NCBI RefSeq assembly: GCF_001457595.1
Contig: NZ_LN831039.1
Span: 5,940,001-5,972,000, forward strand
Source: Mycolicibacterium smegmatis
GTDB lineage: Bacteria > Actinomycetota > Actinomycetes > Mycobacteriales > Mycobacteriaceae
Direction of reading: 5' to 3'
DNA: 32,000 nt
In this document: positions 1,234 through 29,409 of the stretch, piece after piece
How positions within the stretch are numbered: position 1 is the stretch's first letter
Layout of the letters: each line of letters begins with the position of its first letter
The notes under the pieces: generated by a model
The model's database searches: none
What the model saw: only the letters and a program-made list of their open reading frames with translations
What the model was told of the DNA's origin: nothing
Translations under genes and position numbers: made by a program

Positions 1234-1662
1234 ATGCTCATGTCCATGGCGACCGTCTTCACGAAGATCATCAACCGCGAACTGCCCGGCCGTTTCGTCT
1301 ACGAAGACGACGACATCGTGGCGTTCCTGACGATCGAACCCATGACGCAGGGCCACACGCTCGTGGTGCCGCGCGCCGAACTCGACAACTGGCAGGACAT
1401 CGAACCCGCCGTGTTCGCCCGGGTCATGGAGGTCTCGCAGTTGATCGGCAAGGCGGTCTGCAAGGCCTTCGACACCGAGCGTTCGGGCCTGATCATCGCC
1501 GGCCTCGAGGTGCCGCACCTGCACGTCCACGTCTTCCCCGCGCGCAACCTGTCCGACTTCGGGTTCGCCAACGTCGACCGCAACCCGTCACCGGAGTCCC
1601 TCGACGAGGCGCAGGCGAAGATCAAAGCCGCGCTGGCAGATCTGCAATCCGCGGCAGGCTGA
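1234..1662 (+). CDS. HIT family (histidine triad) nucleotide hydrolase
   Basis: Histidine triad HLHVHVFP plus the conserved N-terminus [24 protein letters not shown]. Three in-frame ATGs (1234, 1240, 1246) are possible; 1246 (MATVFTKII) is most likely. Confidence 0.85.
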
Positions 1663-3061
1663 CGGTGAACCGGGAGCCCTTCCCGAGCGCCGTGGTGACC
1701 TTCACGGTTCCGCCGTGCGCGTACACCAGTGAGTCGACGATGGACAGTCCCAGCCCCGTGCCGCCGCTGGCGCGGGTGCGCGACGTGTCCGCGCGGTAGA
1801 ACCGCTCGAACACGCGGCGCGCATCCTCCTGGCTCATGCCGGGGCCCTCGTCGCACACTTCGAGAACCGCGTTGTCGCCGTCGGTGCCCACACGCACCGT
1901 GATGCCCGCGGTCTCGGGCGTGTGCTGTACGGCGTTGGCGACGAGGTTGCCGATCACCTGGCGCAGGCGGGCCTCGTCGCCCAGCACCTCCGGGGTGCCC
2001 GGGCCGTCGAAGACCTCCATCTTCACCCTGCGCTTCGGCGCGATCGACTGCGCGTCGTGCACGGCGTCGGTGGCCAGGGCGAGCAGATCGACGCGGCGCC
2101 GTTCGAGGGGGCGTTGTGCGTCGAGACGCGCGAGCAGCAGCAGGTCCTCGACCAGCAGGCCCATGCGGCGCGATTCGCTCTCGATGCGGCCCATCAGCAT
2201 CTCGATGTCGCGCGCCGCGCCCTGCCGGTACAACTCGGCGAAGCCGCGGATCGTGGTCAACGGCGTGCGCAGTTCGTGGCTCGCGTCGGTGATGAAGCGC
2301 CGCATGCGGTCCTCCGACGACCGTGCCTGTTCGGCCGAGGCCTCCGACGCCGCCACCGCGCGCTGGATCTGCGCGAGCATGCCGTTGAGCGCCGACGACA
2401 ACCGTCCCACCTCGGTGCGCGGATCCCGTTCCGGCACACGACGATCCAACTGTCCCGCAGCAATCGCCGCGGCCGTGCGCTCGACCTCGACCAGCGGGCG
2501 CAGGCTGCGGTGGACGACGACGTAGCCGACCACGCCGAGCACAAGAAGGACCGCGGCGCCGATGCCGACCTGCGACCACACCAGGGCCCGCACCGACGAC
2601 TGCACCTCGGACAGGTCGATGGCGACCGTGGTGAGTTCACCGTTGGGGCCGCGCACCGTCATGGCGCGCCATTCGACGTTGGACTTGTCGATCGAGCCGA
2701 CGGTCACCGGTACCGGGCCGACGTCGTTGTTCTCGGGCAGCGCCGGTTCGGCCTCGCGGTCGTTGACGGCGATCCAGGTGCGGCCGTCCTCATCGAAGCC
2801 GCGCACGTAGAAGTTCGACGGCGGACGGGCCGGGTTGGGGCCCTCCAGCGGTGTGGTGGGCGCGCGCCGCGGGGCCTGCGCCCAACTCCTGGACGCGTCG
2901 AGAAGGGTCTGGTCGATGCGGCTGACCTCGGTGTGCCGCATGATCGACGTGACGGCGATACCCGAGGCCAGCAGACCGCATGCCACCAGCACAAGCGCGG
3001 CGGCCACCAACCCCACGCGCAGTGGGATGCCGCGTCGACCACGGTTCACCCGGTCAAGCAC
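1622..3061 (-). CDS. phoR: Sensor histidine kinase PhoR
   Basis: Two TM helices flank an extracytoplasmic domain of about 120 aa. It has a HAMP region, the HisKA H-box [13 protein letters not shown], and the HATPase G-box [10 protein letters not shown]. It lies 29 bp downstream of the phoP orthologue on the same strand. GTG start at 3061. Confidence 0.85.
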
Positions 3062-3090: not shown

Positions 3091-3810
3091 TCAGCGCGGC
3101 TCGCGCAAAACGTAGCCGACGCCGCGCAGCGTGTGCAGCAGTCGCTTCTCGCCGGTGTCGATCTTGCGTCGCAGGTAGGACACATAGGACTCCACGACAT
3201 TGACGTCACCGCCGAAGTCGTAGCGCCACACGTGGTCGAGGATCTTGGGCTTGGACAACACCGTGCCCGCGTTGATGATGAAGTAGCGCAGCAGTGTGAA
3301 CTCCGTGGGCGACAGCGAGACCGGCTCGCCGGCCTTCCACACCTCGTGGGTGTCCTCGTCGAGTTCGATGTCGGCGAAGGTGAGCCGCGCGTTGCGGGTC
3401 TCCTCGACGCCGCGGCCGGAGCGGCGCAGGATCACCCGCAGGCGGGCCACGACCTCTTCGAGGCTGAACGGCTTGGTCACGTAGTCGTCGCCGCCGAGGG
3501 TGAGACCGGCGATCTTGTCCTGCAGGCTGTCGCGCGCGGTGAGGAACAGGGCGGGTGCGTCGATACCGTCGGCGCGCAGGCGGCGCAGCAGTCCGAAGCC
3601 GTCCATACCCGGCATCATCACGTCCAGGATCACGGCGTCGGGCCGTACCTCACGGGCTTTGTCGAGGGCCGCCGCGCCGTTGGACGCGGTGTGCACCTCG
3701 AAGCCCTGGAACTTCAGGCTCACCGAGAGCAGCTCGACGATGTTCGCCTCGTCGTCCACCACCAGGACGCGAGCTTCTGGAACGTTTTCGGGAAGAGCGG
3801 GCATGGCCAT
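3091..3810 (-). CDS. phoP: OmpR-family response regulator PhoP
   Basis: The translation is near-identical over most of its length to my recollection of M. tuberculosis PhoP (EARVLVVDDEANIVELLSVSLKFQGFEV...LHTLRGVGYVLREPR). It has a receiver domain plus a winged-helix domain. The start is ATG 3810 or ATG 3804. Confidence 0.9.
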   Translation of the reverse strand: MAMPALPENVPEARVLVVDDEANIVELLSVSLKFQGFEVHTASNGAAALDKAREVRPDAVILDVMMPGMDGFGLLRRLRADGIDAPALFLTARDSLQDKIAGLTLGGDDYVTKPFSLEEVVARLRVILRRSGRGVEETRNARLTFADIELDEDTHEVWKAGEPVSLSPTEFTLLRYFIINAGTVLSKPKILDHVWRYDFGGDVNVVESYVSYLRRKIDTGEKRLLHTLRGVGYVLREPR

Positions 3811-3842: not shown

Positions 3843-3871
3843 CCTGCACGCTACCTGTGTGCTTCCTGTGA
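3843..3871 (-). promoter_or_regulatory. Three 11-bp-phased direct repeats (PhoP-box-like) in the phoP promoter
   Basis: The minus strand reads TCACAGGaagcACACAGGtagcGTGCAGG. Plus-strand units start at 3843, 3854 and 3865. The array lies 33-61 bp upstream of the phoP start and resembles the TCACAGC-n4-TCACAGC PhoP site. Confidence 0.5.
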
Positions 3872-7533: not shown

Positions 7534-8160
7534 CTACGGCAGCGACACTTTCGGGAAGGGTCGCGGCTGGTCCGCGCCCGGCCCGTCGAAGTGCCACCAC
7601 TCCCCTTCGTACACGCTCAGCCCGCCGGCCTGCATCGCGTCGCGCAGCCGCGCCCGGTTGGCCCGCGCGGCAGCACTCACACCCTCGGTGGCGTAGGCCT
7701 GGCTGCGGGCGGTGAAGTCGTCGAACCCGGTGCCCATGTCCGCACCCGCGATCGTGACGTCCACCGACCGCCCGGCCTCGTGGCTGCGCGCCGCGGTTCC
7801 CGGACGCGCCACCCACGCCGGGTTGGGCACCACCTCGAACATCCGCACCTGCACCTCGTGCGGGCGGTAGCAGTCCCAGAACACCAACCGCTCGGGGCGC
7901 AGCCGCGCCGCGGCCACCGCGAACCCGTGGGCCATCGACTCGTGCACCAGACACCGTGAACCGGTCGGGTACAGCTGTTCGCCCACGAAGTTGTCGGTGG
8001 TTGCGTACCTGAGGTCGACCACCGCGTCCGGCACCACGGTGCGCACGTCCACGAGTCGGTCATCCGACACCGGATCGGCCGCCGCCACCGGCGCAAACAC
8101 CGTCGTCAGGCACCCCGCAGCGGCGATCGCGGCGAGGACCAGCGCGGACACCCGTCGCAT
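7534..8160 (-). CDS. VanX/DdpX-like D-alanyl-D-alanine dipeptidase (peptidase M15D), probable lipoprotein
   Basis: The zinc/catalytic motif SHEAGRSVD aligns to the VanX sequence SRHSRGSAID, and EWWHF is present. ATG at 8160 gives MRRVSALVLAAIAAAGC with a lipobox-like AAGC. Confidence 0.8.
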   Translation of the reverse strand: MRRVSALVLAAIAAAGCLTTVFAPVAAADPVSDDRLVDVRTVVPDAVVDLRYATTDNFVGEQLYPTGSRCLVHESMAHGFAVAAARLRPERLVFWDCYRPHEVQVRMFEVVPNPAWVARPGTAARSHEAGRSVDVTIAGADMGTGFDDFTARSQAYATEGVSAAARANRARLRDAMQAGGLSVYEGEWWHFDGPGADQPRPFPKVSLP

Positions 8161-13683: not shown

Positions 13684-14559
13684 TCAGCCGTCGGTGACGA
13701 CTCCCCGCAGGCCTTCGGCGCCGAACAGCGGTTCCAGCATGCCCGAGATGTCGGGACCGCGCCGCAGCCCGTGGCCGCCGTCGACGTTGATGGCCTGGCC
13801 GGTGATCCAGCCCGCCGCGTCGCTGAGCAGGAACACCGCGAGGTTCGCGATGTCCTCGACCTCACCGAAGCGCGGCAGCGGCGTGCAGGCCGCGTAATCG
13901 TCGGTGACCGCGGGGACACCCAGGATCGGCTCGACCATCTCGGTGCGGGTGAGCCCGGGGCGGATGCTGTTGACCCGCACCCACGACGGCCCGAGTTCGT
14001 CCGCGGCGAGCTTGAGCAGGTGATCCAGCGCGGCCTTGCTGACGCCGTAGGCGCCGAACCAGCGGTGGATGTTGCTCGACGCGATCGAGGAGATCCCGAC
14101 GAACGATCCACCGCCGCCGCGCACCATCTCGCGGCCCGCGTGCTTGAGCAGGTACATCGTGCCGTTGATGTTGAGATCGATGGTCTGCCGCCACAATTCG
14201 GAATCGATCTGTGTGATCGGCCCGATGGTCTGCGATCCGCCCGCGCTGTGCACCACGCCGTGCAGACGCCCGTGCCATGCGGTCGCGGCGTCCACGGCGC
14301 GGTGCACCTCGTCCTCGTCGGTCACGTCGGCGGGTTCGTAGCGCACCGAACCCGGACCGAGCGCGCCGATCTCGTCGGCGGCGGCAGAGAGCTTGTCGGC
14401 GTTGCGACCGACCAGCATGACGTCGCCGCCCGCCGCCACGATCGCCGCGGCAGCGCCCTTGCCGATACCGCTTCCGCCACCGGTCACCAGATATGTACGT
14501 TCCGCCAACGACAGCTGCACTGCTGCGCCCTTCATCCAGTGGGAATGGTTCTGCGTCAA
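13684..14559 (-). CDS. SDR family oxidoreductase
   Basis: TGGGSGIGKG Rossmann motif, an HSAG (NxAG-type) motif, and the YGVSK catalytic Y-x3-K. A TTG start at 14559 overlaps the upstream hydratase stop (TTGA). ATG at 14535 is an alternative start. Confidence 0.85.
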   Translation of the reverse strand: MTQNHSHWMKGAAVQLSLAERTYLVTGGGSGIGKGAAAAIVAAGGDVMLVGRNADKLSAAADEIGALGPGSVRYEPADVTDEDEVHRAVDAATAWHGRLHGVVHSAGGSQTIGPITQIDSELWRQTIDLNINGTMYLLKHAGREMVRGGGGSFVGISSIASSNIHRWFGAYGVSKAALDHLLKLAADELGPSWVRVNSIRPGLTRTEMVEPILGVPAVTDDYAACTPLPRFGEVEDIANLAVFLLSDAAGWITGQAINVDGGHGLRRGPDISGMLEPLFGAEGLRGVVTDG

Positions 14560-15473
14560 GGTGTATCACGTCGGGCGAGCTTGGGAGCGCCCAATGTGCG
14601 CCAATCGGGAACATCCGGCGGCATGCCGACGGGCCAGCGGTTCTCGTTGGCGGCGGCCCAGTGCGCATGCCCGAGTTCGTGGATGTGGAACGCGTGGTGC
14701 AACGCCTCGGCGAAGCCCATCGAGTCGGCAGCGGCGTTCACCGAATCCTTCACCAGCAGCGCAGCCATCGTGGGCCGTTCGGCGATCCGCCGCGCGAACT
14801 CCAGGGTCTTGTCCTCCAGCTCTTCGCGGCCGAACACCTTGGACACCATGCCCAGCCGGTAGGCCTCGTCGGCGTCGATCGAATCGCCGGTCAGCAGCAG
14901 TTCTTTGGCCTTGCGCGGGCCGAATTCCCAAGGGTGCGCGTAGTACTCGACGCCGGGCATGCCCATCCGGACGGCCACCACGTCGCTGAACCTGGCGTCG
15001 TCGGCGGCCACGATCAGATCGCACGCCCAGATCAGCATCAGGGCCGCCGAGATGGCGTTGCCCTGCACCTGGGCGATGGTGATCTTGCGCAGATCGCGCC
15101 AGCGTTTGGTGTTCTCGAAATAGAAGTGCCATTCCTGCCGGTAGGTGCGCTCGGCGACGCCGGCCACCGTCGCGCCGTAGCCGGCGAACGTCGGGTGCTG
15201 CCCGGGGCCGGGTTCGCGTTCGGCGAGTGCCTCCTCGGAACCGAGGTCGTGGCCGGCCGAGAAATTCTTGCCGCGCGCGGCCAGGATGACCACGCGCACG
15301 GTGTCGTCGGCCTCGGCGCGGGCGAACGCCTCGTCGAGTTGCACGAGAAGCGTGCGGGACTGCGCATTCTGCGCCTGCGGGCGGTTGAGCCAGATCCGGG
15401 CGATACGCCCTTCGTCGAGCGTCTCGTACTCGATCTGGCGGGCCTGGCCGCCGTCGCCGTCGGAACCGGTCAT
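14556..15473 (-). CDS. Enoyl-CoA hydratase/isomerase (crotonase) family protein
   Basis: Crotonase fold motifs (RIWLNRPQAQNA, GKNFSAGHDLG, AQVQGNAISAALML). The likely start is ATG 15473 (MTGSDGDG). Confidence 0.85.
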   Translation of the reverse strand: MTGSDGDGGQARQIEYETLDEGRIARIWLNRPQAQNAQSRTLLVQLDEAFARAEADDTVRVVILAARGKNFSAGHDLGSEEALAEREPGPGQHPTFAGYGATVAGVAERTYRQEWHFYFENTKRWRDLRKITIAQVQGNAISAALMLIWACDLIVAADDARFSDVVAVRMGMPGVEYYAHPWEFGPRKAKELLLTGDSIDADEAYRLGMVSKVFGREELEDKTLEFARRIAERPTMAALLVKDSVNAAADSMGFAEALHHAFHIHELGHAHWAAANENRWPVGMPPDVPDWRTLGAPKLARRDTP

Positions 15474-15541
15474 GTCGAACCACCTCATCAGCAGGTATGG
15501 CACTTAACAAAATGCACCATACGTGTATCGCCCCAGTCATC

Positions 15542-15585
15542 TCACACCGGGATCACAGCAATCGAACAGAATCATCACAGCAGAC
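15542..15585 (+). promoter_or_regulatory. Four 11-bp-phased direct repeats, two of them perfect TCACAGC (PhoP-box-like array)
   Basis: The sequence reads TCACACCgggaTCACAGCaatcGAACAGAatcaTCACAGCagac, with units starting at 15542, 15553, 15564 and 15575. It sits in the 264-bp divergent intergenic region between the hydratase start (15473) and the first small secreted protein gene (15738). Confidence 0.5.
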
Positions 15586-15737
15586 ACCAAGCCGGCATTG
15601 GACGCCGCGACTATCGCGCGCTTATCCGTTGTCGCGCGTATGATGTCGTACGCGAAGCGATACCTGGCCGCCACCCCAACGCGGACCCGACGGGCATCTA
15701 CAGCAAACATACAGGAACCTCAGAAAAGGGCACGCGA

Positions 15738-16109
15738 ATGACCATCTCCCAGTTCACCGCCCGCCGGCTGCCCCTCGCCGTCGGCATGGCGTGCGCAGCC
15801 GCCGCGGTCGCTGTCGCTCCGGTGTTCTCGGCGTTGTCCGCACCCACGTCGGCTCTGGCGGCGTGCCCCAACGGGGAAACCGAGGACACCTTCACCAACC
15901 AGTGCGTGCCCGATCTGGTGCCCAACTCGCCCGAGCCCGCGTTCTCCACTGCCCCCAACCAGCTGCCGCAGATCGACGGCATCCCGTGCACGGGCGCCAA
16001 CACCGGACAGTGCATCGGCCTGGGCGAGGAGCAGCAGGCGCAGGGCCCGGCCGCCGTCCCGCGCTCGTCGGTCGGCAGCAGCCCCACCGTCACCGGCCAC
16101 ACGAACTGA
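15738..16109 (+). CDS. Small secreted (possibly lipidated) four-cysteine protein, paralogue 1 of 3
   Basis: The signal peptide ends ALA|AC. The mature part is ACPNGETEDTFTNQCVPDLVPNSP...IPCTGANTGQCIGLGEEQ. It is homologous to the two downstream ORFs. Only the last 123 codons of the 538-aa track ORF are taken as real. Confidence 0.7.
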   Translation: MTISQFTARRLPLAVGMACAAAAVAVAPVFSALSAPTSALAACPNGETEDTFTNQCVPDLVPNSPEPAFSTAPNQLPQIDGIPCTGANTGQCIGLGEEQQAQGPAAVPRSSVGSSPTVTGHTN

Positions 16110-16204
16110 TCAGATCCGGCCTGGATCCGATCCGACGCAAATCACATACGCGGGCTGATCGCGATATAGCCCGATTTCGCCCCCGGCGGCCATAAACTGC
16201 TGGG

Positions 16205-16537
16205 GTGATTCGCACTGTCTTTGCTGCGGCGGCCTGCGCCCTCGGCGTGTCGGCGCTGGCCCTCGTCCCCGCACCGGCCGCATCGGCCGCGTGCCACAAC
16301 GGGGAAGAAGAAGACACCTACACCATGGTGTGCACCCCGTTCATGGTGCCCAATTCGCCTGGGGCGTTCAGCGGGATCCCGGGCAATCCGGACCTCCCGG
16401 CCGTGAACCTGCCCGGCGGCGGTGGCGCCATCCCGTGCACGGGCCACAACGCGGGCGAATGCATCGGGCTGGCCGAGGAGGACGCGGCCGAGGGACCGAT
16501 GGCGCAGCCACGGTCGATCATCAGCGCGAGCCCGTAA
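16205..16537 (+). CDS. Small secreted four-cysteine protein, paralogue 2 of 3
   Basis: The signal peptide ends ASA|AC. The mature part is ACHNGEEEDTYTMVCTPFMVPNSP...LPAVNLPGGGGAIPCTGHNAGECIGLAEED. Differences from paralogue 3 are mostly at third codon positions. GTG start. Confidence 0.7.
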   Translation: MIRTVFAAAACALGVSALALVPAPAASAACHNGEEEDTYTMVCTPFMVPNSPGAFSGIPGNPDLPAVNLPGGGGAIPCTGHNAGECIGLAEEDAAEGPMAQPRSIISASP

Positions 16538-16647
16538 CGAACGCCCAGTTCAGGGCCGCATTTCAGGGAGCTCCAAGAACTGATGCAGATTATTCCCAGC
16601 TTCCTTAGAATTCTTCCCGACGAAACAGTCAGACAACTACAGAAAGC

Positions 16648-17043
16648 GTGACAATGGCGACCTTCCCGTACTCACTGCGACGACTGATCCTTGCCGGCGG
16701 ATTCGTGGTCGCTGCGGCCGCCGCTCCGGCGATCACCGTGTTCGCCGTTCCCGATTCCGCCATGCCCACGGCGGCGTGCCCTGGTGGTGAGGAAGAGGAC
16801 CTGTACACCGGCGTGTGCGTGCCGCACACGGTCCCGAACTCGGGCGGGTCGTTCAGCCCGATCCCCGGTAACCCCAACCTGCCCGCGGTCAACCTGCCTG
16901 GTGGCGGCGGATCCATCCCCTGCACCGGCAACAACACGGGTCAGTGCATCGGCCTGGCCGAGGAAGCCCAGTCCCAGGCCCCCTCGGTGACCCCGGAGTC
17001 GTCGGTCGGCAGCAGCCCGACGGTCCACGGTTCGATCGGCTGA
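16648..17043 (+). CDS. Small secreted four-cysteine protein, paralogue 3 of 3
   Basis: The signal peptide ends PTA|AC. The mature part is ACPGGEEEDLYTGVCVPHTVPNSG...LPAVNLPGGGGSIPCTGNNTGQCIGLAEEA. The C-terminal SSVGSSPTV is shared with paralogue 1. The start is GTG 16648 or ATG 16654. Confidence 0.7.
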   Translation: MTMATFPYSLRRLILAGGFVVAAAAAPAITVFAVPDSAMPTAACPGGEEEDLYTGVCVPHTVPNSGGSFSPIPGNPNLPAVNLPGGGGSIPCTGNNTGQCIGLAEEAQSQAPSVTPESSVGSSPTVHGSIG

Positions 17044-17053
17044 CCAGCGGTGA

Positions 17054-17078
17054 GGCGACCGGGATTTTCCCGGTCGCC
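17054..17078 (+). terminator. Perfect 11-bp stem, 3-nt loop hairpin after the paralogue cluster (no U-tract)
   Basis: ggcgaccggga-ttt-tcccggtcgcc, starting 11 nt after the stop of paralogue 3. It is GC-rich, like the tail-less terminators common in mycobacteria. Confidence 0.45.
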
Positions 17079-17091
17079 TACAGTTGTTCTC

Positions 17092-17256
17092 ATGCCTGCG
17101 AAAACTGATCCCGCCGATCTCGGCGACGTGGAACCGCTAGCCGACGACACCGCCAGCCAGGCGCGCCGGGTGGTCGCCACCTACGCGACCGACGCCGACG
17201 AATGCCGCATGTTCCTGTCGATGCTCGGTATTGGGCCCTCGAAGACCGAGGTCTAG
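17092..17256 (+). CDS. Small conserved hypothetical protein (54 aa) abutting otsA
   Basis: ATG at 17092 (MPAKTDPADLGDVEPLADDTASQARRVVATYATDADECRMFLSMLGIGPSKTEV). Its TAG stop is immediately followed by the otsA ATG (TAGATG). The longer track ORF would start inside the hairpin. Confidence 0.45.
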   Translation: MPAKTDPADLGDVEPLADDTASQARRVVATYATDADECRMFLSMLGIGPSKTEV

Positions 17257-18764
<1,508 letters not shown>

Positions 18765-18768
<4 letters not shown>

Positions 18769-29172: not shown

Positions 29173-29306
29173 CCTCAGCTCCGTTCATTTGGGGCGGGGT
29201 GGGCATTCGCCGGAATTCACTCCGGCGAAAATTCTGGGCCACCGGATCGGCGGCCTTCCCACCCTGGGGTCTGACATGGCGCTCACGTGAGCCGGATCAT
29301 ATTAAC

Positions 29307-29320
29307 TAGAACAAGTTCGC
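29307..29320. promoter_or_regulatory. KstR-type operator, near-consensus
   Basis: TAGAACAAGTTCGC matches 7 of 8 constrained positions of TnnAACnnGTTnnA. It lies 135 bp upstream of the yrbE4A start. Confidence 0.45.
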
Positions 29321-29395
29321 AGTGTCAAAGAACAGCGAACTATGGGAAAACTCCAGCGTCTTCCCAGTTCGGAGCACATAGAGCAGATCGAAATC

Positions 29396-29409
29396 TGAAA
29401 CGTGTTCTA
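29396..29409. promoter_or_regulatory. KstR-type operator, perfect consensus match
   Basis: TGAAACGTGTTCTA fits TnnAACnnGTTnnA at all constrained positions. It lies in the hsd4A-yrbE4A intergenic region, 224 bp upstream of yrbE4A. Confidence 0.6.

Follow-up and report, generated by a model that had tools for sequence, protein, structure and literature searches.

A candidate four-unit PhoP-box array upstream of a small secreted-protein gene cluster in Mycolicibacterium smegmatis

PhoPR is a major virulence switch of Mycobacterium tuberculosis; inactivation of this system is the basis of a live vaccine candidate. Knowledge of the PhoPR regulon comes almost wholly from the tuberculosis complex, and the targets known best are mostly pathogen-specific. 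To our knowledge, PhoPR control in environmental mycobacteria, and hence the original role of the system, is poorly known. Here we describe a predicted PhoP-binding array in a 32,000-nucleotide stretch of the Mycolicibacterium smegmatis chromosome (assembly GCF_001457595.1, contig NZ_LN831039.1, forward-strand positions 5,940,001 to 5,972,000; hereafter the window, with positions counted from its first letter). The array lies in the intergenic region between a divergent enoyl-CoA hydratase gene (14556-15473, minus strand) and three plus-strand genes for small secreted proteins (15738-16109, 16205-16537, and 16654-17043; genes 1 to 3).

The M. tuberculosis PhoP site is TCACAGC-N4-TCACAGC with a strict 4-bp spacer, repeats of three or four units bind PhoP with higher affinity than a dimer site, and in the PhoP-DNA structure the middle three base pairs of the half-site are contacted most heavily (PMC4832192). 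Cryo-electron microscopy (cryo-EM) has resolved tandem PhoP dimers, tetramers, and hexamers on promoters, in which dimers stack cooperatively (PMC11825685). By comparison with the 4PhoP and 6PhoP activation complexes of that study, the four phased units of the window would hold a tandem tetramer. The array shares a common half-site, the strict 4-bp spacer, and a preference for A-rich spacers with the M. tuberculosis sites at phoP, lipF, mcr7, pks2, and fadD21. It differs from them in that the host is a fast-growing Mycolicibacterium, the site is a prediction from sequence, and the genes that it would control are without counterpart at the corresponding M. tuberculosis locus.

The array occupies positions 15542-15581 of the plus strand and consists of four 7-bp units, TCACACC, TCACAGC, GAACAGA, and TCACAGC, beginning at 15542, 15553, 15564, and 15575. 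Its spacers (ggga, aatc, and atca) are all 4 bp long and give an 11-bp period, as a preliminary description of this DNA had stated in reporting four units exactly 11 bp apart with two perfect copies of TCACAGC. The individual units match TCACAGC at 6/7, 7/7, 4/7, and 7/7 positions, or 24 of 28 against four phased copies, and the central ACA is kept in all of them. TCACAGC occurs only twice in the window when both strands are counted, both times inside the array, and a third occurrence of the shorter TCACAG is found only in the phoP promoter. Under the base composition of the window, at least 24 matches are expected at a rate of 2.3e-11 per start position, or 1.5e-6 for the 64,000 positions of both strands. 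The best score in each of 60 first-order Markov random windows was 17 to 20, and the best unrelated position of the real window scores 18, bearing out the earlier judgement that such an array is improbable by chance.

In order not to rest the assignment to PhoP on the consensus alone, we derived a matrix of 18 positions from the 28 primary motifs of M. tuberculosis PhoP peaks obtained by chromatin immunoprecipitation sequencing (ChIP-seq; PMC4038636, Table S1) and scanned both strands of the window. The top match is the phoP promoter (18.1 bits; 3871, minus strand) and the second is the array itself (17.2 bits at 15553), which falls in the range of the M. tuberculosis ChIP sites (median 16.8 bits). 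The remaining registers of the array score 14.4 and 13.0 bits. Matches of this quality are scarce: related genomes yield three of at least 14 bits over 752,224 strand positions, and the window yields none outside the phoP promoter, the array, and the small-protein region. The latter, 1.6 kb long, holds six matches of at least 12 bits, all on the plus strand. Two weaker units lie in phase with the array on the same strand, each matching TCACAGC at four of seven positions. CCCCAGT (15531-15537) has a CAG core and forms a 7.3-bit dimer with the first unit, and ACCAAGC (15586-15592) is part of the 14.4-bit dimer match that starts at 15575.

The presumed binding protein is encoded in the same window. 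The phoP gene (3091-3810, minus strand; 8.9e-142 to M. tuberculosis PhoP structures) and the sensor kinase gene phoR (1622-3061, minus strand; HAMP, HisKA, and HATPase_c domains) lie 12 kb from the array. The window PhoP is about 93% identical to M. tuberculosis PhoP over the aligned region, with an identical recognition helix, and the segment GGDVNVVESYVSYLRRK, which holds the published base-contacting residues, is the same in both. The phoP promoter carries a related three-unit array, TCACAGG-aagc-ACACAGG-tagc-GTGCAGG (3843-3871, minus strand), and its rank as the best matrix match of the window is an internal positive control for autoregulation. On these points the preliminary description proved accurate: the TCACAGC half-site with its 4-bp spacer given there agrees with the published site (PMC4832192), and PhoP, PhoR, and the phoP promoter array lie where it had placed them. 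Its identification of the repeats as a PhoP box now draws support from the independent ChIP matrix and from the pattern of conservation.

Conservation was followed in 80 orthologous hydratase loci from different species. Matches of at least 11 bits occur at the array position in 66 of these, always in the plus orientation. Overall, 61-68 of the 80 loci hold the array in this orientation, and some 60 related species share it. When 61 arrays were anchored on their spacing from the -10 element downstream, C4, A5, and G6 were invariant in all 61 loci for three units, and the fourth, upstream unit followed nCnCA(G/C)C. Variation in the spacers spares the second position, which is A-rich, as it is in M. 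tuberculosis sites. Correlation of the conservation profile with the M. tuberculosis matrix reaches r = 0.84-0.87 for in-phase registers and 0.66 for the fourth unit, compared with about zero at all other offsets. Because the orthologous arrays had been located by their similarity to the consensus, we also aligned 14 diverse intergenic regions with MAFFT and without reference to the motif (alignment A1). Invariant columns in A1 are confined to four blocks: 15507-15526, the three CAG cores (15555-58, 15567-69, and 15578-80), 15639-40, and CAGCAAA at 15701-07. The CAG cores remain invariant amid spacers and flanking intergenic sequence that are no longer recognizably similar. Conservation is thus concentrated on the bases that PhoP contacts, and this pattern supports the reading of the array as typical of PhoP.

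The position of the array suggests which genes it serves. A predicted -10 element of the small-protein promoter, TATGAT (15639-15644, plus strand), belongs to a conserved TANNNT hexamer. In 53 of 68 loci this hexamer follows the array at 57-60 nt, and in six others at 69-70 nt, owing to a one-unit shift of the search frame. The DNA between the array and this element is not conserved, and the -10 columns T196, A197, and T201 are invariant or nearly so in A1. With a predicted transcription start near 15651, the units would lie at about -109 to -70. A promoter with the array at the -35 position of the plus-strand genes was considered and rejected, as no conserved TANNNT is found 5-30 nt past the last unit.

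Further PhoP-like sites occur within the cluster. The promoter of gene 3 contains the units TTTCAGG, TCCAAGA, ATGCAGA, and TCCCAGC at 16561, 16572, 16583, and 16594 (feature 16561-16611, plus strand; 11.1 and 13.8 bits), which end 5 nt before a -10 element, TAGAAT (16606-16611). The arrangement ATGCAGA-N4-TC(A/C)CAG(C/T)-N5-TA(G/C)A(A/C)T recurs with 33 matches in about 20 loci (among L002-L025, at about 1120-1190 in window orientation). Gene 2 has a -10 element, TAAACT (16193-16198, plus strand), with its GTG start 6 nt on, so its mRNA is probably leaderless. The gene 2 promoter of the fortuitum group has strong phased units (ACACAGT-aaat-CCTCAGC-agtcc-TAGACT); those ahead of gene 2 in the window are degenerate. 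In the cryo-EM complexes the downstream PhoP dimer overlaps the -35 region, as do the units of the gene 3 promoter and of the fortuitum-group gene 2 promoter. The array ahead of gene 1 differs in lying about five helical turns further upstream. Since the difference between its gap to the -10 element and that of the paralogous promoters (57-59 compared with 5 nt) amounts to about five helical turns, the first array would face the same side of the helix as arrays next to a -10 element.

The predicted 5' leader of gene 1 contains a second PhoP-like site, CTACAGC-aaac-ATACAGG-aacc-TCAGAAA (15698-15726, plus strand; 16.6 and 12.8 bits), some 12-40 nt upstream of the ATG. Conservation among species is limited to the first half of the site, TCAGCAAAC, which is one of the four invariant intergenic blocks, and a conserved PhoP dimer at this place is therefore doubtful. 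TCAGCAAAC could be a PhoP half-site, the site of another protein, or an element acting at the RNA level. Many species have a further leader element just downstream of the plus-strand -10, GCTAGCAGATGCC-N-CTGC(C/T)ACAACTTCGG (L016, L028, L034, L046, L048, L059, and other loci), which has the potential to form an AGCAG/CTGCT stem and is absent from the window. A scan of window positions 15300-17400 with Rfam returned no family at E values up to 1, so the conserved leader elements of the window are not a known RNA.

The preliminary description had left three choices for the target, namely the small-protein genes, the divergent hydratase operon, or both. The array could be a PhoP site whose principal target is the operon of the hydratase and the adjacent short-chain dehydrogenase/reductase (SDR) gene, activated or repressed through occupancy of the -35 region, which we regard as possible but unlikely. 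A predicted -10 element for this operon, TATGGT (15516-15521, minus strand), sits in the invariant block 15507-15526 (A1 columns 64-83). The units would fall at -33 to -72 of a predicted start near 15509, the classical position for the OmpR/PhoB family, their distance to the block is fixed at 30 nt in 48 of 68 loci, and 7 of 29 M. tuberculosis ChIP motifs point away from the associated gene. However, 17 loci carry insertions of 22-100 nt on the hydratase side, giving distances to the block of 52-132 nt, and these loci keep 58-59 nt to the plus-strand -10. The array also reads toward the plus-strand genes and away from the hydratase gene, and motif and gene orientation agree in 22 of the 29 M. 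tuberculosis peaks; relative to the predicted hydratase start the units thus have the usual position in reversed orientation. In M. kansasii, M. xenopi, and locus L073, the hydratase gene stands directly beside crsL, and the small-protein genes and the array are both absent, yet the hydratase promoter block is retained fully. A matrix scan of the loci found no PhoP-like match on the hydratase strand. Because spacing, orientation, presence and absence, and the paralogue promoters all point in the same direction, the small secreted-protein cluster is likely the main target of the array. The comparative data thus favor the first of the three choices and leave the hydratase operon a secondary part. 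Since unit 1 overlaps the -35 region of the hydratase promoter in this clade (-33 to -39), a secondary and probably negative effect on this operon is plausible but speculative.

Assignment to a different regulator of the OmpR family that uses 11-bp direct repeats, foremost MtrA or else a protein of the RegX3/PHO-box type (motif GTTCACC), appears very unlikely, although any protein of the same specificity would be compatible with the sequence, a point that counts against naming PhoP. MtrA boxes are likewise direct repeats with an 11-bp period and a TCACA core, which the window units share with both motif types, and of the two forms given for the mycobacterial MtrA motif, GTCACAgcg and cGTnACc-N4, the former contains TCACAGC. 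The G-T prefix of these boxes is not conserved in the array: the three core units have G at position 0 in 52%, 3%, and 0% of loci, and the first unit has T or A at position 1 in just 33%. A5 and G6, which are specific to PhoP and unspecified in the MtrA motif, are invariant in 61 of 61 loci. An MtrA box was rejected on this conservation profile; in the window, too, the G-T or G-A expected 5' of nAC is missing, with C, A, C, and A preceding the units. A GTTCACC-type PHO box was rejected because the conserved GTTCAC core is lacking; no conserved GT(T) prefix is seen across the loci when they are read in the PHO-box register, and the motif does not include the invariant AG. The PHO-box consensus of S. 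coelicolor has been quoted in the M. tuberculosis PhoP literature (PMC4832192). The ChIP matrix of PhoP fits the conservation profile at the correlations given above. That the repeats are a chance occurrence, or a neutral and non-regulatory relic of promoter duplication within the small-protein family, seems extremely improbable. The upstream sequences of the paralogues are related, so recurrence of the motif partly reflects common descent, and 8 or 9 loci have lost the array. However, the rate of about 1.5e-6 arrays per window, the invariance of the CAG cores in 61 species amid diverged spacers and flanks, and the strictly kept spacing to the -10 element argue against both forms of this explanation.

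We consider it probable that the array is a multi-protomer site for phosphorylated PhoP with the small-protein cluster as its main target and possible read-through into crsL-otsA. From the published M. tuberculosis biochemistry and structures, PhoP protomers would bind head to tail, one per 7-bp unit and on one face of the helix, to form a cooperative tetramer on 15542-15581, with most of the affinity supplied by the perfect units 2 and 4. PhoP would most likely activate the small-protein promoter from upstream in the manner of a class I activator, and gene 3 would be under a PhoP-type promoter of its own, with four phased units 5 nt before the -10 element. Part of the transcripts may pass the hairpin downstream of gene 3 (17054-17078) into crsL-otsA. 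MSMEG_5889 and crsL are transcribed together from an upstream promoter, P0, in M. smegmatis (PMC12709188), so some PhoP-dependent read-through into crsL-otsA is possible. PhoP occupancy may also modulate the hydratase-SDR operon, probably by repression, which is speculative.

Several observations weigh against this interpretation. Location of the orthologous arrays by similarity to TCACAGC inflates the match at the unit positions, while leaving the spacer positions and alignment A1 unaffected. Eight or nine loci (for example L026, L032, L033, L036, L041, L042, L045, and L051) keep the small-protein genes with a different promoter and without the array, and control by the array is therefore not obligatory. 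The plus-strand promoter was predicted solely from the conserved TANNNT hexamer, and a consensus promoter and terminator scan of 15400-15800, which demands a good -35, gave nothing. Mycobacterial promoters often lack a good -35 hexamer. At lipF and mcr7, the best-studied PhoP-activated promoters of M. tuberculosis, the strong dimers lie at about -61 to -43 (calculated), nearer to the start than the -109 to -70 predicted for these units. Finally, PhoP binding or expression data for this organism or its fast-growing relatives were not found in the literature searched.

The genes on both sides of the array are as the preliminary description had given them. The hydratase and SDR genes lie on the minus strand, and the triplet of genes for Cys-rich secreted proteins lies on the plus strand. 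The enoyl-CoA hydratase (PRK08290) is 91-93% identical to the hydratases of M. fortunisiensis and M. frederiksbergense, and the SDR oxidoreductase gene (13684-14559, minus strand) is an orthologue of M. tuberculosis Rv3485c (75% identity). The hydratase promoter block 15507-15526 reads AAAATGCACCATACGTGTAT (consensus CTGCACATTACGTG), and about 20 bp of it are invariant in all species, including slow growers. The block is longer than a -10 hexamer needs and partly palindromic (CAC-N5-GTG), and it may be an operator for a further regulator.

The three plus-strand proteins are paralogous; all have four cysteines and a signal peptide at the N terminus. Protein 1 has 123 amino acids, gene 2 begins with GTG, and the likely start of gene 3 is the ATG at 16654, with an in-frame GTG at 16648. 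Searches of Pfam and NCBIfam gave no match for the small proteins, and all named homologues are annotated as hypothetical. It is a narrow family of 119 representatives out of 1.84 billion, whose members are usually 100-150 amino acids long. A metagenomic homologue of 1422 amino acids (P0401) contains 13 tandem copies of the domain. An RRL motif (TARRLPL and SLRRLIL) is present in the signal peptides of proteins 1 and 3 (15738-15800 and 16654-16720) and of most orthologues, which suggests Tat export of the small proteins. In M. tuberculosis, PhoP controls Tat secretion via the small RNA Mcr7.

A terminator-like hairpin follows gene 3 (17054-17078, plus strand; -27.5 kcal/mol, z = -6.1) with a perfect 10-bp GC-rich stem, and is probably a terminator that parts the small-protein genes from crsL-otsA. 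The gene crsL (17092-17256, plus strand; 54 amino acids), identified by its translation and homologues as the orthologue of Rv3489 and of MSMEG_5890, encodes the recently named CarD-binding protein CrsL (PMC12709188); its reading frame falls short of the 80-aa cutoff of the gene listing and was absent from it. The sequence TACAGT lies 7 nt 5' of the crsL ATG, which suggests a leaderless transcript, and M. kansasii and M. xenopi have the same TACAGT. The crsL stop codon abuts the start of otsA (17257-18768, plus strand), which encodes trehalose-6-phosphate synthase (NCBIfam TIGR02400, 4.9e-158), and the end of the mce4 operon follows otsA. A 13.5-bit matrix match, GCTCAGCgaatTCACCGG, lies inside the otsA coding sequence (18486-18503, plus strand). 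A similar sequence of about 11 bits, probably in the otsA coding region, occurs in M. kansasii and M. xenopi, and conservation of the match probably reflects coding constraint rather than use as a binding site. In M. tuberculosis a PhoP ChIP peak lies ahead of yrbE4A, which is the first mce4 gene. The window counterpart, intergenic DNA beside the start of the mce4 operon (about 29300-29400, plus strand), reaches only 8.7 and 7.7 bits, and these weak matches lie on the opposite strand.

To compare the locus with that of the pathogen, window positions 13684-17256 were set against positions 7630-8000 of a tuberculosis-complex contig (L088). Between Rv3485c and Rv3489-otsA, M. tuberculosis has Rv3486, lipF, and Rv3488 in place of the hydratase and small-protein genes, and tblastn found no remnant of either at this locus. 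The lipF-Rv3488 site of M. tuberculosis, GTACAGC-aaac-TCCCAGT, is among its strongest PhoP sites (39-fold ChIP enrichment and a 151-fold change in RNA sequencing). The lipF promoter is PhoP- and acid-dependent and lies in the same syntenic slot as the window array. If its -10 element is TGTGAT, which is our own reading, it too has four phased units, with 4 nt between the last of them and the -10. The two sites differ in direction, since the lipF site reads away from otsA and toward lipF and the window array reads the opposite way. Homology between them was sought and rejected: local alignment of the 68-nt query lipFa1 to all loci was no better than that of shuffled queries, and an nhmmer profile of the paralogue promoters matched the lipF site at an insignificant E = 7.7. 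As there is neither detectable homology nor a gene remnant, we do not claim common descent of the lipF and window sites, which would be speculative. The same chromosomal slot would nevertheless be PhoP-controlled in both lineages, on the window side by prediction. It is conceivable, if decidedly unlikely, that the slot from the SDR gene to crsL-otsA is an ancient PhoP locus. Under this scenario environmental species would use the locus to make small secreted proteins with cysteines, possibly Tat-exported, under PhoP control; in the M. tuberculosis lineage the cassette and the hydratase gene would have been replaced by Rv3486-lipF-Rv3488, and lipF would have inherited or re-created a PhoP promoter. 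If so, the small proteins would be core members of an ancestral, non-pathogen PhoP regulon.

A PhoP regulon or a phoP-mutant transcriptome of fast-growing mycobacteria, and a link between PhoP and these small-protein genes, were not found in the literature searched; the preliminary description, too, had known of no account of this link. As a prediction the array is well supported: it would be an element of a known type that marks a new PhoP target outside the tuberculosis complex. It offers a predicted target that is conserved over dozens of non-tuberculous species and directly testable, and that consists of an uncharacterized family of small secreted proteins beside crsL, the gene for a CarD-binding transcription modulator, and the trehalose gene otsA. 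As a natural four-unit array, it also lends itself to probing cooperative PhoP oligomerization away from the promoter. It may further be asked whether the strongly PhoP-dependent lipF promoter of M. tuberculosis originated at a locus that PhoP already controlled.

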